Virus record (IMG/VR): IMGVR_UViG_2671180770_000025 | From: a virus | Taxonomy: Duplodnaviria; Heunggongvirae; Uroviricota; Caudoviricetes | Length of the DNA stretch: 41,019 bases | Direction: 5' to 3' (one strand) | In this document: in pieces, positions 1-41,019 of the stretch | Position numbering within the stretch: position 1 is the stretch's first letter | Layout: the number at the start of each line of letters is the position of its first letter | Notes under the pieces: generated by a model | What the model was told of the DNA's origin: nothing | Database searches by the model: none | What the model saw: only the letters and a program-made list of their open reading frames with translations | Made by a program: the position numbers and the translations under genes

Positions 1-1164
1 TTACACATCATTAGTACCTTCCTTATTTTTTGACTGGGACAAATTTGGGACCGATGGGTTTAGGATCGAGTCTATTTGCCGTGCGTGTTCGGTAAGGTGA
101 TTAGGTGCAAGGTGAGCATATCGACGAACCATTTCGATAGACTCCCAGCCTCCCATTTCCTGTAACACTGACAACGGGACTCCGGCTTGAACCAGCCAAC
201 TTGCCCAGGTGTGTCTCAAGTCGTGAAATCTGAAATCATCAATACCAGCCCGTCTCAGCGCCGCTTTCCAGGCTGTGTTTGCGTCATACCGCATCTTCCT
301 GACTGTTGGCGCTTTCGTTCCGTCTGGTTTGGTACAGCTTTCCTTGTACACAAATACCCAACGGTGATGATTCCCGATTTGTTTTTTCAATACGCGACAT
401 GCAGTATCATTCAGCGCAACGCCAATTGCGCGGTTTGATTTACTCTCTTCCGGGTTTATCCATGCCACCCGGCGCTGCATATCTATTTGTTGCCATTCAA
501 GGTTGATGATGTTCGAGCGTCTTAGGCCTGTTGCCAGTGCAAATTCAACAACAGACTTTAATGGCTCCGGACATTCATCAATCAGCCTTTGTGCTTCATG
601 GGGCTCCAGCCAGCGGATCCGTTTATTCTTTGGTTGGGGCACTTTAATAATTGGTGCCTTATCCAGCATTTTCCATTCACGCTCTGCGGCTCTTAGTAGG
701 GCCTTTATAAATGAAAGATGCGTAGCCTTCGTTGCAACGGACGCTGGTTTTGGCGTGTATTCTGGAACAGGTTTCCCTTTTTTTCTGCATGCTTCTGCCC
801 TGAGTTTCCAGTTTTCCTCATGACGCCGGTTCGTCATTTTCTGCATTGCTGAATAAATTTTTGATTCAGTAATGTCTCTTAGTTGCATTCCTGCGAAATG
901 TTGAAGCCAGAATCCGATCCGGCTTTTGTCATCGTCCAGTGATTTTTTATGTGCTTTCTCTTCAAGCCACCTGACACACGCTTCCTCGAACGTTATATCA
1001 GGTATTTCACCAAGTTTGCTGACCCGCCATGCTTCAGCCTTTAGCTTGTCATGGAGTTCTGTCGCCTGCCTTTTGTCCTTTGTTCCAAGAGACTGTTTAA
1101 ATCTTTTACCGTTCGGCAATGTGAAACTGGCGTACCATATTTCACCTCTGCGGAAGAGTGACAT
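1..1164 (-). CDS. int: Tyrosine integrase, P22 Int-like (387 aa)
   Basis: C-terminal tyrosine-recombinase motif [39 protein letters not shown]; N-terminus [14 protein letters not shown] resembles P22 Int as recalled; SD GAGGAAAG upstream of ATG at 1164. Confidence 0.9.
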
Positions 1165-25957: not shown

Positions 25958-27782
25958 ATTTGAGCTTAAGGCGTTGATCACCGGTGTCGACAGGCTTTCT
26001 CCCGCGCTGTCGAAAATGCAAAAGAAAATCCGGGGATTTAAACGCCAGGCGGAAGAAGCGTCACAGGGTGGGCTGGCGCTTGGTGGCGGACTGGCAGCGG
26101 GTCTGACGCTTTCCCTGAAATCTTATGCCGATCAGGAAAACGCCGCCACCGGGCTGAAAGTCGCCATGATGGATGCGAATGGCGAGGTTGGAAAGAGCTT
26201 TCAGGACATCAATAAACTGGCTATTGGCCTGGGTAACCAGCTACCCGGTACAACGGCTGATTTCCAGAACATGATGCAGATGCTGGTGCGTCAGGGGATC
26301 CCGGCAGAAAACATTCTTGGCGGTGTGGGTAAAGCGACAGCTTATCTTGCGGTACAACTGAAAAAAACACCGGAAGCGGCTGCTGAGTTTGCTGCAAAGA
26401 TGCAGGATGCTACCGGAACGGCGTCAGAAGACATGATGGGGCTGTTCGACACTATCCAGAAGGCGTTTTATCTGGGCGTTGACGATACCAACATGTTGTC
26501 CTTCTTCACTAAAACCAGTTCTGTTCTGAAGATGGTGAACAAGGACGGTCTTCAGGCTGCACAGAGCCTTGCCCCCATCAGCGTCATGATGGATCAGATG
26601 GGGATGAACGGGGAGTCGGCAGGTAATGCCCTGCGAAAAGTTATCCAGTCCGGATTAAGCGTTAAGAAAATCAGGGACGTCAATAAAATCATGGCCCGCC
26701 AGAAACTCGGGGTACAGCTCGATTTTACTGACGGCAAAGGAAGTTTTGGCGGTCTTGATAACATGTTCAGGCAACTGGCAAAGCTGCGAAAACTGACCGA
26801 CGTTAAGCGAACAGGTGTACTTAAGGCAATATTTGGTGATGATGCCGAAACCCTTCAGGTGGTCAATGCACTAATCGATAAAGGAAAGGATGGCTACGAT
26901 CAGATCCAGCAGAAGATGAATAAACAGGCCAGCCTGAATAAACGTGTTCAGGCCCAGCTTGGTACGCTGTCCAACCTGTGGGAGGCAATGACGGGGACCG
27001 CAACTAACGGCCTTGCGGCTATTGGCGGCGCATTTTCTGGTGACGCCAAAAATATCACGCAATGGCTGGGGGAGTTGGGGGAGAAATTCACGAGGTTTGC
27101 GGATGAAAATCCCCGGGTTATTCGCGGCGTCGTCGGGCTTGCTGCCGGTCTTGCGATTCTGAAACTGGGATTGATGGGCGTGGGCAGTGCCATCAGTATC
27201 GTCAGCAGGATCATGTCGATGACGCCGATTGGCATGATTGCGACGGCGATTGCCCTGGCTGCGGGATTAATTATCACTAACTGGGATGTTGTCGGACCTT
27301 ATTTTAAGAAACTCTGGGAAACCATTAGTCCTTATTTTGAGGCTGGCTGGGAACTTCTGAAGAAGGTTTTTGCCTGGTCGCCGCTGGGGATGGTGATCAA
27401 TAACTGGGGACCGGTTGTTAAGTGGTTTCAGGATATGTGGGATAAGCTGAAGCCGATTATTGAATGGTTTACCGACAGTTCCGGTGACACGGTCGATGCC
27501 ATTAACTCGGCGCAGTGGGGCGCGGGTGCTTATGATGCTTATGGGACGGGAATACCGGCACGGGGATACACTCCTTATCCGGCGGTGGATCCGGCTCAGG
27601 CAAACAACGCCTCCGATGCCACAGGCTCGAATCCCTTCATGATTAATAAAGCTACCGCGCCAAAAGTTGATGGTGAGATCAAGGTATCATTTATAAATAT
27701 GCCACCAGATATGCGGGTTACGGAAACACGCTCCAGTGGCATTGATATAAATCACGATGTTGGCTATACCCGATTTTGGTAG
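25950..27782 (+). CDS. Tail tape measure protein
   Basis: 610 aa, helical with Gly-rich hydrophobic stretches; follows the chaperone frameshift pair. Confidence 0.75.
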   Translation: MAEFELKALITGVDRLSPALSKMQKKIRGFKRQAEEASQGGLALGGGLAAGLTLSLKSYADQENAATGLKVAMMDANGEVGKSFQDINKLAIGLGNQLPGTTADFQNMMQMLVRQGIPAENILGGVGKATAYLAVQLKKTPEAAAEFAAKMQDATGTASEDMMGLFDTIQKAFYLGVDDTNMLSFFTKTSSVLKMVNKDGLQAAQSLAPISVMMDQMGMNGESAGNALRKVIQSGLSVKKIRDVNKIMARQKLGVQLDFTDGKGSFGGLDNMFRQLAKLRKLTDVKRTGVLKAIFGDDAETLQVVNALIDKGKDGYDQIQQKMNKQASLNKRVQAQLGTLSNLWEAMTGTATNGLAAIGGAFSGDAKNITQWLGELGEKFTRFADENPRVIRGVVGLAAGLAILKLGLMGVGSAISIVSRIMSMTPIGMIATAIALAAGLIITNWDVVGPYFKKLWETISPYFEAGWELLKKVFAWSPLGMVINNWGPVVKWFQDMWDKLKPIIEWFTDSSGDTVDAINSAQWGAGAYDAYGTGIPARGYTPYPAVDPAQANNASDATGSNPFMINKATAPKVDGEIKVSFINMPPDMRVTETRSSGIDINHDVGYTRFW

Positions 27783-35931: not shown

Positions 35932-37821
35932 TTAATCGTGTTTTGGCCATACTTTCAATGCAATTTCCCCCAACTTTTTACCCCGCTCCAGGATTTCATC
36001 CTCATCCCATTTATCCTTAACTATAAGTGGAATGTTCAGTCGTAGATTGGTGTGGACGATGAGAGCATCACGTTTTTTCAGAAATACAGCATTCTGAACA
36101 GAACGGTTTACGCTAAGGTTAAGCAAAGTTAGATTTCCCAACGTAGCTATCGCTTGTTGCCGTTTCCTTACCAGTAGCTGTTCAGGGGTAAGATCGGTTC
36201 CAGACAGAACAATTTGGTTCAATACCGTAGCATCTGAATTTGTCACCATATGACCATTTTCGAGAGGCCAACAGGAATACCAACTTTGAGGCATAAGATG
36301 ATCGATATCGAGGTTAGAAAGATTTGGAACATCAGGCTTCTCTGTCTTCACTTGGCGACAAAGTTCTCTTTCAAGTTCCGTTAACATTGAGCGCATTTTC
36401 GGTGCGTCGAGCCTGCCAGGATAAAGTGGAGCATTGATGCAAGCGTTGAGAAATTCTGAGTCCCCAGGCCAACGTGAGGCTTCGCCATTTAAGCTATTGA
36501 GGATATTACGTAACTCAACACTGGAAATTTCCGTTTTAGACAAGTGCCGCAATACATTCATAAATACATTGTTGTAATTCTTTGGCGTCAGGCCACATAC
36601 GGCTCTTCGTACTACGTAGGAGACAAGATCATTATACATGGCTGCTTTCTCATCATCGGCGATGTTAGCTATCGAAATGAACAAAGCAAGCGGATAAAGT
36701 GTCGTCACATCATAGGCTGCGATGCGATGTCCAAAGTGTGAGATGGGGGTTGTGCCAAAACCACCAACCAATTCTTTATATTGTGATGCATATTGTTTGA
36801 GGCGCTTTACTTGCAGATCTGCTCGTTGTGAAGGCAAGTCCTTACTTACATAATCACGATACTCATTGTAAAGACGAGACAGATCGATTTCACGTTGCCT
36901 TTCTGATTGCAATGTCGCATGCACTAGCCACTCCATGCGTGGTTTATTAATACGACCACGACGTTGTCTTTCTGACCAGTACGTATCTTCAAAGATCTTC
37001 CACTCATTCTCATATAATTCAACAGCATTAATATTTTCATGTTCAGCGCACATAAAAATATAATTGCGAATAAGATCTGTGGCATGAAGTTCCGCACCTC
37101 TGCCATTTAATGTTTCAAAAATTATTTGAGCGTCATCTTCAGCCTCGAGAAATATGCTTACTAGTTTCAGATCCGTCAAGACAGCCTCAATTAATGCTAC
37201 AGCATTTTCTCGTGGTGAGTGATTTTCTATTTTAATCCACTTTATAAAGGCTTCAGTAAAAAAACATAATGCTTCTAGTGATGGCGGGTGATTAAAATGC
37301 TTACGCAACGTACCATGCTGCGTGAAACTATCAGAGAATACATTCCGGATATCGTCAATATTTTCAACATTAAAACTTTGAATAAAATGAGTTTGATCCC
37401 GAAAAGTTGGCCACAGTTTGAAGCGCTCTACTTCTTTATTTCGCATTGTGTCTTCGTTTGAGTTTTTCAGGCAAGACGAAATGAGAGGCTCTAAGTTGGA
37501 AAGATCTGTCGCACGTAATGCTAATCGGATGGATGCCAGAACATATTGAAGAGTGGTCAATCGTTGCTGACCATCAATAATATGTATGGAATCTACACCT
37601 AATAATCCTTTTTTTGGTTGAGGTTCCAGTACCACTGCACCAAGGAAATGGGGAGTTGGTTTTGTACCCGAGAGCCGGGATTGTGCTTTCTCTAGGATAT
37701 CCTCCAGTAGAGCTGACCATTGGTTTCGCTGAGTCCATACATAGGCACGTTGATAGAATGGAACGCAGTATTGTCGGCGGTCTTGAAAAAGTTGTTGGAC
37801 AGTTAGCGTCTCGGATTTCAT
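35932..37821 (-). CDS. DUF262/DUF1524 two-domain nuclease (GmrSD-like, candidate type IV restriction / anti-phage enzyme); start may be 37881
   Basis: N-terminal DUF262 motifs (VPFYQRAYVWT, IIDGQQRLTTL); C-terminal DUF1524-like His-Me motif (NLDIDHLMPQSW); about 40% GC cargo. Confidence 0.7.
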   Translation of the reverse strand: MKSETLTVQQLFQDRRQYCVPFYQRAYVWTQRNQWSALLEDILEKAQSRLSGTKPTPHFLGAVVLEPQPKKGLLGVDSIHIIDGQQRLTTLQYVLASIRLALRATDLSNLEPLISSCLKNSNEDTMRNKEVERFKLWPTFRDQTHFIQSFNVENIDDIRNVFSDSFTQHGTLRKHFNHPPSLEALCFFTEAFIKWIKIENHSPRENAVALIEAVLTDLKLVSIFLEAEDDAQIIFETLNGRGAELHATDLIRNYIFMCAEHENINAVELYENEWKIFEDTYWSERQRRGRINKPRMEWLVHATLQSERQREIDLSRLYNEYRDYVSKDLPSQRADLQVKRLKQYASQYKELVGGFGTTPISHFGHRIAAYDVTTLYPLALFISIANIADDEKAAMYNDLVSYVVRRAVCGLTPKNYNNVFMNVLRHLSKTEISSVELRNILNSLNGEASRWPGDSEFLNACINAPLYPGRLDAPKMRSMLTELERELCRQVKTEKPDVPNLSNLDIDHLMPQSWYSCWPLENGHMVTNSDATVLNQIVLSGTDLTPEQLLVRKRQQAIATLGNLTLLNLSVNRSVQNAVFLKKRDALIVHTNLRLNIPLIVKDKWDEDEILERGKKLGEIALKVWPKHD

Positions 37822-38554
37822 GGTATACCTGTAAGCGACATTGTACAAAAGTGAGGAGTTAATCTGATTTAGAACAATCATTTTATGTTGCTATGATACA
37901 ACGTATTTGTTACCGGTTAAGTAAAAAACGCGTCTGAACGCTGACGTTTTAGGGCTTTACTAGTTATTCTTTCTTATCTCTTCATCATCCCATCGGCATC
38001 CTGTCGAGGTTGTTGACTTGTTGTTATTTATTTTGTTTAGGCGCTGTTTAATTATTATTGATGGGACTGGTGGTGAGAGGTGATTGAAACCGCAGACAGG
38101 TCGTATGCAAGACGTGCTGCGGTTGGCTGGTAAATGTTAGATAGTGCGAGTATTGAATGATTTCTAGCCGTTATTGATTTTACGTATTTTTGTATGAGAG
38201 GATTTGCATCTCCTGCCACCGACCCTCCATGACTTTACGCCACTGTCTCTAGGGCTGCTATGTGCCAAAAGCGGAAGTTGAGGGGGGATGGCAAGCACTC
38301 GTATCGTGGCAAAATTTTGGCTACCGCTTCTCCCGGTCGCAACCGATTTAGTTGACTATGGCGCGTGTGTTAATCAACGGGGAGGAAGTTAGAGGAAACA
38401 ATAAATAAAGACATAACCGTCTGTTTTTATTTAAATTATTGACTGATGCGAGGAGTTGAACTTCCGATACCCCATGATATCTTACTTAGATAGTGAGATG
38501 ATCTAAGATACACTATATAAGTTACAATCTAGCCGGAGATGTAGGAGGGAGTAT

Positions 38555-39358
38555 ATGGGGTATGATTATAAAGAGCATATTAGCAATGCTAAGAGGCTCT
38601 ATGAAATTGGGGATAACGCTTCTTTAAGATACTGTGCATTGGAATTGAGATTTGCAATTGAGTGCCATGTATATATTCAATTAAGAGCAGGGCTAGGAAC
38701 AATTCCAGAGACGGTAATTAACACATGGCAACCACCTCAAGCAATAAAATCTTTATGCATGTTTGAGGAAACAGCAGATCAGGATTTAAAAGTAACTATA
38801 ACTTGTGATGACTCTAATGAGATAACAGCAAACTATAAAAATATTAAGTATAAGGACCTTAATAAATGGTATAATACCCTTGGGAGTTTTTTACATCAAC
38901 CAACCATAAAAAAGCAAGAATTTCAAGTAGATAAAGATAAACTAAATTCGATATTATCGAATTTAGCTGAACTGTGCGATCATCAGCTCATAACATTTCA
39001 TCGTGGTTATGAGAAAATAAAATGTGAAAAATGTAAAAAGGAAATTATTTTTACTAAAAATTACGTGAAAAAAAATAATAAAATAGATTGCCAAAATGCT
39101 GGTTGCCATAATTATGTTATTATTAGACTTGCCCCGGATGGTACATATGAATCACTCCAATCTGCTGTAGTAGCTTGCTTTATATGTGGTGAAAAAAACC
39201 ACATCTCATTATGCGACATGGAGGATGGAGCAGAGTTATATTGCAAGACGTGTAAAAATAAACATGTAATTAAAAAAGCTATTTTCTCCCAAGACAAAGT
39301 TGTTCCCATACCTGAATTTACTTTCGAAAACTCATTGTTGGTTGAGGACAAAGAGTAA
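38555..39358 (+). CDS. Hypothetical 267-aa protein: helical N-terminal region with R-x5-H motif, C-terminal double zinc-ribbon-like region
   Basis: Very AT-rich; ELRFAIECH fits Rx4-6H; CEKCKK...CQNAGCH and CFICGE...CKTCKNKH Cys clusters; no recognised family. Confidence 0.5.
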   Translation: MGYDYKEHISNAKRLYEIGDNASLRYCALELRFAIECHVYIQLRAGLGTIPETVINTWQPPQAIKSLCMFEETADQDLKVTITCDDSNEITANYKNIKYKDLNKWYNTLGSFLHQPTIKKQEFQVDKDKLNSILSNLAELCDHQLITFHRGYEKIKCEKCKKEIIFTKNYVKKNNKIDCQNAGCHNYVIIRLAPDGTYESLQSAVVACFICGEKNHISLCDMEDGAELYCKTCKNKHVIKKAIFSQDKVVPIPEFTFENSLLVEDKE

Positions 39359-39586
39359 CATCAAGTTGTTTGTAGAGCTTGCTTGACCTGCTCCCCGTTG
39401 ATTAATACATATTTCTGCTGGTCATATCATTATTTTGAGCCTGACGGCTTGATCAACTCAGTCCGCTGTTCGCTCATAGCGGACCTTACAACCACCTGAT
39501 TGGTCCGTTCCGTGTCAGGAGCGGATACCGTAAGCATTTTATCCTCTGGAGGGGCATCCCTTTCAAGAAATGCATCCGTTGTGGAT

Positions 39587-40018
39587 TTATGCAACACCTG
39601 AAGCTACTAACAAAGAACAATTTGTCTGACCAAAGGCATTTTTTAGCAGCGGGAAAAGAGGGGGAAGTTCCGTTAGCGATTTTAGAGGCTTGAGGCTCTT
39701 AAGTGATTTAAGTGATGGCAAATTAGGTGTGGTAACCATGTCTTTTACTGCACAGGCAACATAGCCATCGTGATCAATCAACATACCATTAGTAAACCAG
39801 CCTAAATGATTCCCATTGAATCCATAAACATCAAACTCATTGTTCTGGTTATGTTTAAGGTAGGCGCTTGGTTCACCCTCCCAACTATATAAAGTCAACT
39901 CGTCATCAAGTGAAATATAAACGACGGCGTTGCCTTGATTATCATATAGATCTAGGTCATTACTCGCAGTAACACAAGCTGAGAAAAGAAACATAACTAG
40001 CACGAGTGATTTTTTCAT
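39587..40018 (-). CDS. Secreted hypothetical protein with C-terminal LKS repeat (143 aa)
   Basis: N-terminal signal peptide MKKSLVLVMFLFSACVTA; C-terminal PSLKSLKSLKPLKSL repeat encoded by a short tandem DNA repeat. Confidence 0.45.
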   Translation of the reverse strand: MKKSLVLVMFLFSACVTASNDLDLYDNQGNAVVYISLDDELTLYSWEGEPSAYLKHNQNNEFDVYGFNGNHLGWFTNGMLIDHDGYVACAVKDMVTTPNLPSLKSLKSLKPLKSLTELPPLFPLLKNAFGQTNCSLLVASGVA

Positions 40019-40353
40019 AACTTCTCAAGTTTCTTAGAAAGGAAAAGTTCGAACATTCTATCAAAATTATGAGGACACTAACTTCCGATTTTCGCTCATA
40101 ACAGACATTCACTACAGTTATGGTAGAAGGTATGCATGCTGGGTGGGGAAAGTATGAAGGAAAAGAAGACTGCTGCGCCGTTTGTCGTCACGTTTATCTT
40201 CATTGGCTATGCAAGTCGTAATACAAGGTGGGACAAAACTGAGACACATAAGGCCTCGCAATGGCTTGCAAGGCTTTACATGTTTTGATGTGGTGGGACG
40301 TGTGAGCGCAGTGTTGATGGGGTAATGCTTTGAATTAGAAGCGGATTCTTATA

Positions 40354-40399
40354 ATTCGTAATGCGAAGGTCGTAGGTTCGACTCCTATTATCGGCACCA
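40354..40399 (+). other. attR: 46-nt 3' partial copy of tRNA-Thr (thrW-like, anticodon CGU) from anticodon loop to CCA
   Basis: attcgtaatgcgaaggtcgtaggttcgactcctattatcggcacca matches the 3' portion of E. coli thrW as recalled; the 5' half of the tRNA is absent here. Confidence 0.7.
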
Positions 40400-40563
40400 T
40401 CCCCACTTCTTCAAACGTCCGTATTTGTCCATAAGCATACTGTTTTATAAAAGATTTTTTGTTATCGTTGTCCGTGTTAGTCCATAACCTTCCAGTAGAA
40501 TCCAGTACTAAATGTGTATAGGATTATGTATATGTTCCTGTTCGATTTTGGAATTCTATACAC

Positions 40564-41019
40564 ATGCCCCTAAATGATATGCAGATTCGCCGTGCTAAAC
40601 CTGAAGCTAAAGCCTATACACTTGGGGATGGGCAAGGGTTGTCTTTACTTGTAGAGCCAAATGGAAGTAAAAGCTGGCGATTTCGTTATCGCTATGCAGG
40701 TAAACCTAAAATGATCTCGCTTGGTGTTTATCCAACGATCACACTTGCTGAAGCTCGCGCCCGCCGTGATGAGGCCAGAAAAATAGTGGCCGAGGGAAAA
40801 AATCCTAGTGAGGTTCGAAAAGAACAAAAATTAGCATTACGAATTCAATCTGAGAACGCATTCGAAAAGATTGCCAGAGAGTGGCATCAGATGAAGTCGG
40901 CAAAATGGTCTGCTGGGTATGCCTCAGATATTATTGAGGCGTTCCAAAATGATATTTTTCCGTATGTAGGGACGAGGCCTGTAGGGGAAATTAAACCGCT
41001 AGAAGGCTTTGTTGAATAA
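40564..41019 (+). CDS. P4-type tyrosine integrase, N-terminal part (runs off the window end)
   Basis: MPLNDMQIRRAKPEAKAYTLGDGQGLSLLVEPNGSKSWRFRYRYAGKPK is a typical P4-like integrase N-terminus; just downstream of the tRNA fragment. Confidence 0.75.
   Translation: MPLNDMQIRRAKPEAKAYTLGDGQGLSLLVEPNGSKSWRFRYRYAGKPKMISLGVYPTITLAEARARRDEARKIVAEGKNPSEVRKEQKLALRIQSENAFEKIAREWHQMKSAKWSAGYASDIIEAFQNDIFPYVGTRPVGEIKPLEGFVE

Follow-up and report, generated by a model that had tools for sequence, protein, structure and literature searches.

The att-proximal end of a thrW prophage

The window analysed here, a stretch of DNA of 41,019 nucleotides taken as a whole, is an E. coli prophage that carries an SfII/P22-type integrase and is inserted in the tRNA-Thr gene thrW (Table 1). 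Its right end holds a 46-bp segment that matches the 3′ terminus of K-12 thrW without a difference, and likewise the core of SfII attP; the segment includes the published P22 attP string ATGCGAAGGTCGTAGGTTCGACT quoted in the phage L paper. Because it matches the thrW 3′ end, the SfII core and the P22 string, we assign this segment to attR, as the initial annotation had assumed. ARAGORN finds no tRNA in the window, and the thrW piece is therefore only a 46-bp fragment. thrW carries tandem islands: the partial copy at attR is followed, 164 bp on, by the P4-type integrase of a second island (from 40564), with the domains Arm-DNA-bind_3 and Phage_int_M. In strain A27, an ATP-dependent nuclease and then IS1 come after the P4-type integrase gene.

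The cargo at this end of the prophage includes a GmrSD-type restriction enzyme, a defence moron in att-proximal position, and, as the last gene, a secreted-looking ‘beta flower’ protein. Placed between these two is the gene for a 267-aa protein that finds no match in Pfam or PADLOC.

Table 1. Positions of the genes, recombination elements and reading frame discussed in the text, counted from the first letter of the window.
Feature	Position	Strand	Remarks
Integrase	1..1164	-	385/387 residues identical to Int of Shigella phage SfII
Candidate P′ arm sites, two TGGGAC	35-40 and 46-51	same strand as P-arm copies	in int 3′ end, attL side
Cargo: GmrSD-family type IV methyl-directed restriction enzyme	35932..37881	-	Pfam GmrSD_N and GmrSD_C; PADLOC mREase_IV, 1440 bits
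Cargo: 267-aa protein	38555..39358	+	several CxxC pairs in C-terminal half; RefSeq: hypothetical
Cargo: secreted-looking ‘beta flower’ protein, last cargo gene	39587..40018	-	Pfam Bflower
Block A, optional conserved module	40079..40220		between cargo and att arm; ~140 bp
ORF under study	40154..40288	+	44 codons, or 50 from ATG 40136; probably a by-product of neighbouring elements
Candidate outer arm-type Int binding site (P1), TGGGAC	40229..40234	+	start of obligatory arm
Conserved palindromic hairpin	40244..40283		16-17 bp stem, 6-8 nt loop; A-tract upstream; TTTT after stem (+)
Remaining P arm, stop codon to core	40289..40353		non-coding; nearly identical to SfII attP arm
Candidate inner arm-type Int binding site (P2), TGGGAC	40294..40299	+	65 bp from P1; same spacing in P22
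att core in attR	40354..40399	+	46-bp copy of thrW 3′ end (ATTCGTAATG...GGCACCA)

A short reading frame between cargo and attR

The ORF that is the subject of this analysis lies between the last cargo gene and the partial thrW, where the initial annotation had placed it. It runs from the ATG at 40154-40156 to the TGA at 40286-40288 and encodes 44 aa (MKEKKTAAPFVVTFIFIGYASRNTRWDKTETHKASQWLARLYMF). The upstream GGGGA that had been pointed out is present at 40146-40150, three bases (aag) before the ATG, and the upstream string reads ggggaaagtATG; a second in-frame ATG at 40136 would give a 50-aa version of the product. The length of this frame does not rise above chance: the final 3 kb of the window are overlapped by 14 ORFs that reach or exceed 44 aa, of which just 4 are real genes. 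Most variants of the locus retain the purine-rich, Shine-Dalgarno (SD)-like stretch as well as a start codon, ATG or GTG, and 27 or more codons of open frame follow in the lineages of the window, phi458, lambda and PhiR11.

The product had been likened to small membrane toxins on account of a hydrophobic core. Read from the sequence, the unbroken hydrophobic run is AAPFVVTFIFIGYA, flanked by KEKKT and SRNTR, and it comprises 14 residues, fewer than the ~18 or more of a membrane-spanning segment. In the phi458 and lambda types the run is longer, but it is broken by D and by Q, R or K.

The back of the ORF is att arm and hairpin

The last 60 nt of the ORF (codons 26-44) fall within the P arm of attP. 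In SfII, P22, DLP12, 2G7b and loci L132/L133/L171, unrelated cargo abuts the outer TGGGAC site directly; because the cargo of phages without block A adjoins the arm exactly at this site, the obligatory arm begins at about 40229, that is, at codon 26. Two TGGGAC copies in the P arm and two in the P′ arm, with spacings of 65 bp and 11 bp, form a layout that the window shares exactly with SfII and P22. Over the 2.4 kb of the P22 locus the motif occurs four times against 0.93 expected, which was matched in 1 of 200 shuffles. Judged from sequence, these copies are probably the arm-type sites to which the N-terminal domain of Int binds. The four same-strand copies also make a handy signature with which to delimit SfII/P22-type attP, attL and attR.

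Comparison with related phages places the conserved DNA in the attachment site. In BLAST searches, window positions 40229-40300 are 97% identical to SfV, SfI, SfII, SfIV and the right end of K-12 DLP12, and 81-85% identical to P22, epsilon34 and BTP1, and the homologues always have int/att on one side and unrelated cargo on the other. Between 40229 and the core, the arm is ~97% identical to those of SfII, SfV and SfI; the integrases of phage 21 and lambda are different, and these two phages have in common with the window no more than the hairpin and the DNA to the left of the arm, so that arm type tracks integrase type. The core next to the arm is identical to its bacterial target over the 46-bp thrW match. 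Conservation runs unchanged past the stop codon of the ORF to the att core, and indels disrupt it most just upstream of the start codon; it does not follow the ORF borders. Specifically, the density of variable sites is 0.20 per nt between stop codon and core (40289-40353) as against 0.35 in the ORF. A lack of conservation had been named as a finding that would speak against the peptide; the DNA is in fact conserved, yet in a manner that ignores where the ORF starts and stops.

Inside the arm, and flanked by the two P-arm TGGGAC motifs, lies a palindromic hairpin. In a set of 15 divergent copies, drawn from the window type, the phage 21 type, 4C10, P22, epsilon34, HK75 and lambda, 91% of its cells are paired, compared with only 22-66% in control structures whose partners were slid by 1-3 columns. 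Compensatory swaps between UA and CG occur in five copies and between AU and GC in four, and both sides have changed at three pairs. The changes that preserve the hairpin replace 6 of the last 11 residues of the ORF product.

The strand on which this hairpin folds best differs among lineages. In the window lineage the minimum free energy is -21.5 kcal/mol for the minus strand versus -17.4 kcal/mol for the plus strand, and substitutions preserve minus-strand pairing through G·U pairs; over all copies, the minus strand has 45 G·U cells and the plus strand 15. For P22 and HK75 the two strands fold about equally well, and the lambda copy favours the plus strand. An action of the hairpin on the minus strand only was considered, and this view was toned down, given that plus-strand folding of the lambda, P22 and HK75 copies is equal or superior. 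A UUUU tract directly follows the stem on the plus strand; on the minus strand a U-tract begins 5 nt past the stem. A terminator scan gave two weak minus-strand matches against 1.0 expected. Compared with shuffled sequence, the region as a whole folds no better on the plus strand (z = -0.16) and reaches z = -2.1 on the minus strand.

This element has been seen before. The SfII record (NC_021857, 24720-24766) gives it as a ‘putative rho-independent terminator’ on the minus strand; phage L lists a terminator, and epsilon34 lists one for int transcription as possible, querying its location. The order int, core, arm, hairpin, cargo is found in SfII, P22, epsilon34, 2G7b and HK75. The part of the ORF that consists of att arm and hairpin is already annotated in related phages.

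The arrangement suggests how the hairpin may work. In the circular phage the P arm would lie just downstream of int, and leftward xis-int transcripts would cross the core and reach the hairpin, where, by analogy with lambda tI/sib, they would most likely be terminated or processed. Rightward transcripts from the cargo or late region would meet the same stem and then the TTTT. Integration would split the att site and leave the P arm at attR, distant from int, with the hairpin between its two TGGGAC motifs and the arm then running to the 46-bp thrW core. Since leftward xis-int and rightward cargo or late transcripts would meet the same stem, with TTTT following it on the plus strand, the hairpin is, from its sequence and placement, probably a two-way terminator or insulator.

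An optional module supplies the front of the ORF

The DNA between the cargo and the att arm is occupied by block A, which holds the SD-like purines, the start codon and codons 1 to about 22-25 of the ORF. By BLAST, block A is 84% identical to lambda 27318-27464, and positions 40091-40288, which include part of it, are 92% identical in phage 21. Among 77 att arms gathered regardless of the presence of block A, the module is present in 37, partial in 11 and absent in 29; six loci, L183 among them, retain only its last 31 nt. Block A is optional, and lambdoid phages with different integrases have it in common through recombination.

Block A has a sharp left edge, at ...TCGCTCAT (40097-40104), which does not vary across more than 12 unrelated cargo contexts. 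Next to it, positions 40105-40127 (ACAGACATTCACTACAGTTATGG) are near-invariant and contain an inverted repeat, CATAAC...GTTATG, with a 14-nt spacer. Because this stretch is conserved even where indels alter all the reading frames across it, it may serve for protein binding or recombination. In other genomes, block A, arm and partial thrW persist together as a scar that lacks an intact prophage, for example in O157:H7 and beside the vat island. In L035 (2675-2895) and H130, a natural deletion has fused the left 50 bp of block A into the interior of a P4-family primase gene, removing the ORF, the att arm, attR and the integrase of the neighbouring island. The primase match had been considered as a second home of the element and was rejected, as it is a deletion joint into the neighbouring island.

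The shared left edge bears on a reading in which the ORF is irrelevant and block A is a regulatory leader for leftward expression of the adjoining cargo, a portable junction at which cargo is swapped. Its minus-strand sequence, ATGAGCGAG.. (MSEERK..), resembles the remnant of a translation start, and the neighbouring beta-flower gene of the window is itself on the minus strand, its start 60 nt from block A. We found no minus-strand promoter-like site, however; the minus-strand ORFs that start at the edge span just 6-26 codons and are different in each context, the adjoining cargo does not in every case lie on the minus strand, and block A is dispensable. A leader function of this kind therefore strikes us as improbable.

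The frame does not evolve as one conserved gene

Whether the ORF behaves as coding sequence was examined in ~100 homologous loci, gathered with anchors outside the ORF and aligned as unique rows, with the synonymous expectation computed so as to keep the transition/transversion ratio. In codons 2-22 of the window-type rows, the distinct changes comprise 17 that alter the residue and 15 that are synonymous, where ~8.9 synonymous ones are expected (P 0.005-0.006, uncorrected for the six frames and several segments examined), and change events number 7, 9 and 16 at the first, second and third codon positions. In codons 23-44, dN/dS is ~0.9, and the part within the arm (codons 26-44) gives no sign of coding. 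The excess is a weak hint, read from the alignment, that the first ~20 codons are translated now or were once; because the DNA is conserved and codons 2-22 show this excess, the 5′ half may be translated.

These data would suit a real small-protein gene, an optional moron-like module beside attP whose product combines a KEKK N-terminus with a hydrophobic segment and acts as a membrane-inserted toxin, exclusion factor or modulator. The peptide would have 27 aa in phi458, 45-53 in lambda and 44-50 in the window, where the copy would be a frameshifted allele with its tail running into the att arm and with the hairpin as its own terminator. Besides the synonymous excess in the plus frame and the mostly kept SD-like purines and start codon, several observations agree with such a gene. 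The window and lambda types resemble each other over the first 16 residues, the hydrophobic segments of lambda, phi458 and L113 differ mainly by synonymous or conservative changes, and variation peaks just upstream of the start and then turns periodic, as it does at the start of a gene. In addition, a hairpin plus TTTT at the stop codon would suit the terminator of a small gene. Yet the synonymous signal over 40157-40201 weakens to P = 0.16 when more divergent rows are added, and an antisense frame, discussed below, gives the same signal.

The frame itself is not kept among homologues, contrary to what a conserved toxin gene would lead one to expect. A 2-nt indel at codon 17 shifts the frame between the window and lambda types, and locus L113 has a 1-nt deletion at about codon 6. 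In the L182 type, the homologue of the start reads GTG GAG TAA, with a stop at codon 3, and a frameshift falls between the start and the hydrophobic part. In L063 the hydrophobic core is scrambled, and in L183/L184 the SD, the start and codons 1-13 are deleted (L183 was inspected directly). phi458 has a 27-aa ORF at the homologous place, and PhiR11 and IdasGreatGrand have unrelated C-terminal tails, all differing. Nonsense variants occur in the arm part, TGG to TGA in 10 unique rows and TCG to TAG in the phi458 type. The frame is thus broken by frameshifts between the window, lambda, L113 and L182 and by nonsense and start-deleted alleles, both of which are common. Together with the shortness of the 14-residue run for a normal membrane helix, the absence of block A from 29 of the 77 arms and its reduction to the last 31 nt in six loci, this argues against a small-protein gene, which we regard as unlikely though deserving of consideration.

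The L177-L182 variant of ~40125-40215, which is ~65% identical, has a strong SD (GGAGGATAATTATG) before another ORF of 26 codons (MYADNGADSRGVNKVLHCLAASLSYF), and it also has a hydrophobic frame that has no start codon. The hydrophobic frame of the L182 type (GFALLGGIVILFLIMCLLT) was considered as a conserved membrane peptide and rejected, since it has no start codon and its MAFFT register is off by one.

The three-base periodicity could also stem from a gene on the other strand, the minus-strand ORF 40096-40203 of 35 aa (...FFSFILSPPSMHTFYHNCSECLL), which stays uninterrupted in the phi458 and lambda types as well as in the window type. It shows the same synonymous excess over 40157-40219 as the plus frame, because it shares wobble positions with that frame. 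Against it stand a 1-nt insertion at 40126 and other indels that alter its C-terminus in many unique rows, the lack of periodicity in its private part (40105-40153), the lack of an SD before its ATG, and the absence of this ATG from the lambda type. The minus-strand ORF is a poorer candidate than the plus frame, and we find it barely credible as a gene.

Taken together, the back third of the 44-codon ORF is att arm and hairpin and its front is an optional, frameshift-prone spacer, and so the ORF is most likely not a gene. We put the probability at about 0.62 that it is a chance frame across conserved non-coding DNA of two sorts, at the right-hand end of a prophage of SfII/P22 type integrated in thrW. 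The caution in the initial annotation that the ORF may be non-coding is the side that the evidence favours. Its interpretation as a whole, a membrane-toxin-like peptide that may be non-coding, is supported in part: the DNA is conserved and codons 2-22 carry a synonymous excess, but the frame is not kept and the product matches no toxin family.

Database searches and conflicting annotation

The ORF product finds no match in Pfam, PHROG or PADLOC, including their toxin and defence families. An exhaustive HMMER search of 1.84 billion proteins gave 12 matches, none of them below 60% identity and all near-identical prophage copies; this absence of more distant relatives likewise speaks against a small-protein gene. 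Protein databases hold 47 tiny clusters of 29-79 aa named ‘hypothetical protein’. Among the 40 matches listed, of 3,768 complete E. coli genomes with a match, RefSeq/PGAP places a feature beneath none, and the lack of any PGAP call is a further point against the peptide. A full-text literature search for the peptide strings gave no match, and neither peptide nor DNA string is present in the supplements of the O157:H7 Sakai Ribo-seq paper. Rfam gives no match at gathering score over the whole window, none at E up to 5 over 39300-41019, and no relevant match on the lambda and phage 21 loci. A consensus scan of 40019-40354, which can miss real promoters, found no promoter-like site on either strand, and this too counts against a gene here.

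Annotators disagree about this DNA. In phage 21 the homologue is CPT_21_32 (UMO75447.1; OL657228), a ‘putative membrane protein’, and in phage 4W the lambda-type ORF 27372-27533 is a ‘hypothetical protein’ CDS, both of which would agree with a small-protein gene. In IdasGreatGrand, minus-strand ORFs are called here, and RefSeq lambda and PGAP have nothing. The record of phage DN1 (L005, 22494-22655) carries an ncRNA feature, ‘antisense RNA’, whose note cites similarity to BL21(DE3).

This last label, and the TTTT directly after the hairpin on the plus strand, would fit a plus-strand small non-coding RNA that runs from block A to the hairpin and could be antisense to the read-through 3′ end of int. 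We rejected the DN1 feature as evidence for an RNA, however. Its coordinates are exactly the ATG to TGA of the 53-codon lambda ORF (MHAGCGEVVKEKK...), 27372-27533, and the label therefore looks like a gene call under a new name, not like an RNA that had been mapped. Considering also that no Rfam family is found even at E up to 5, that the region has no promoter-like site and that its plus strand folds no better than shuffled sequence, we judge a small RNA highly improbable. The initial annotation had suggested a search for an antisense RNA; no antisense promoter or RNA is predicted here.

Exact copies of the lambda b-region sequence (L010-L025) occur in assemblies of Fusobacterium, Shewanella, Pseudomonas, Paenibacillus and Oceanobacillus, among others, often on ~48 kb low-coverage contigs, which points to contamination with lambda DNA. 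A scan of genome collections anchored on block A yielded little beyond lambda DNA in unrelated assemblies, which is probably contamination, and it was uninformative about diversity.

Discussion

The arm described here resembles those of SfII, SfV, SfI, SfIV, P22, phage L, epsilon34 and DLP12 in its thrW core, hairpin, TGGGAC layout and position, and the integrase is 99% identical to that of SfII. The SfII-group arms differ in that their immediate neighbour is unrelated cargo, such as gtrABC or ompT. In the window and in about half of the related arms, block A intervenes, creating the long ORF.

A second likeness is to lambda. We take the lambda tI stem to lie at 27544-27578. The hairpin of the SfII/P22 module is analogous in position to lambda tI/sib, in that it is the first strong stem beyond int. 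The lambda homologue of the window hairpin, in contrast, is a second hairpin (27475-27508), ~30 nt beyond the tI stem. lambda sib itself is a structured b-region RNA that lies across att from int, is split off by integration and is met by leftward transcripts (PMC2951348).

Phage 21 CPT_21_32 has the same DNA, frame and start region as the ORF, and its product differs mainly in the last residues; the labels of the homologues in phage 21, 4W and DN1 are annotation calls only. Like the type I toxins Hok, Ldr, TisB, Ibs and ZorO, the ORF product is small, has a basic N-terminus ahead of its hydrophobic residues, and is encoded in a prophage. It differs from them in having no sequence match, a run of only 14 hydrophobic residues, no antisense RNA or promoter found and a frame that is not conserved.

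Were a small peptide made here after all, lambdoid phages including lambda would carry an optional attP-adjacent gene for a peptide of ~27-50 residues, expressed from the attR end of the prophage. We hold this to be doubtful; if true, it would add an unannotated gene to lambda and would be of moderate interest to phage biologists. On the preferred reading of a chance frame, a chance ORF at a prophage end is kept from being reported as a toxin candidate, which is in itself of little weight, and the conservation at 40154-40288 is traced to the attachment-site arm and the hairpin. For annotators, there are two practical points. The TGGGAC repeats mark both arms of SfII/P22-type att sites, and an optional 140-bp module common to lambda and phage 21 creates variable ORFs there, on whose strand pipelines differ or which they skip.
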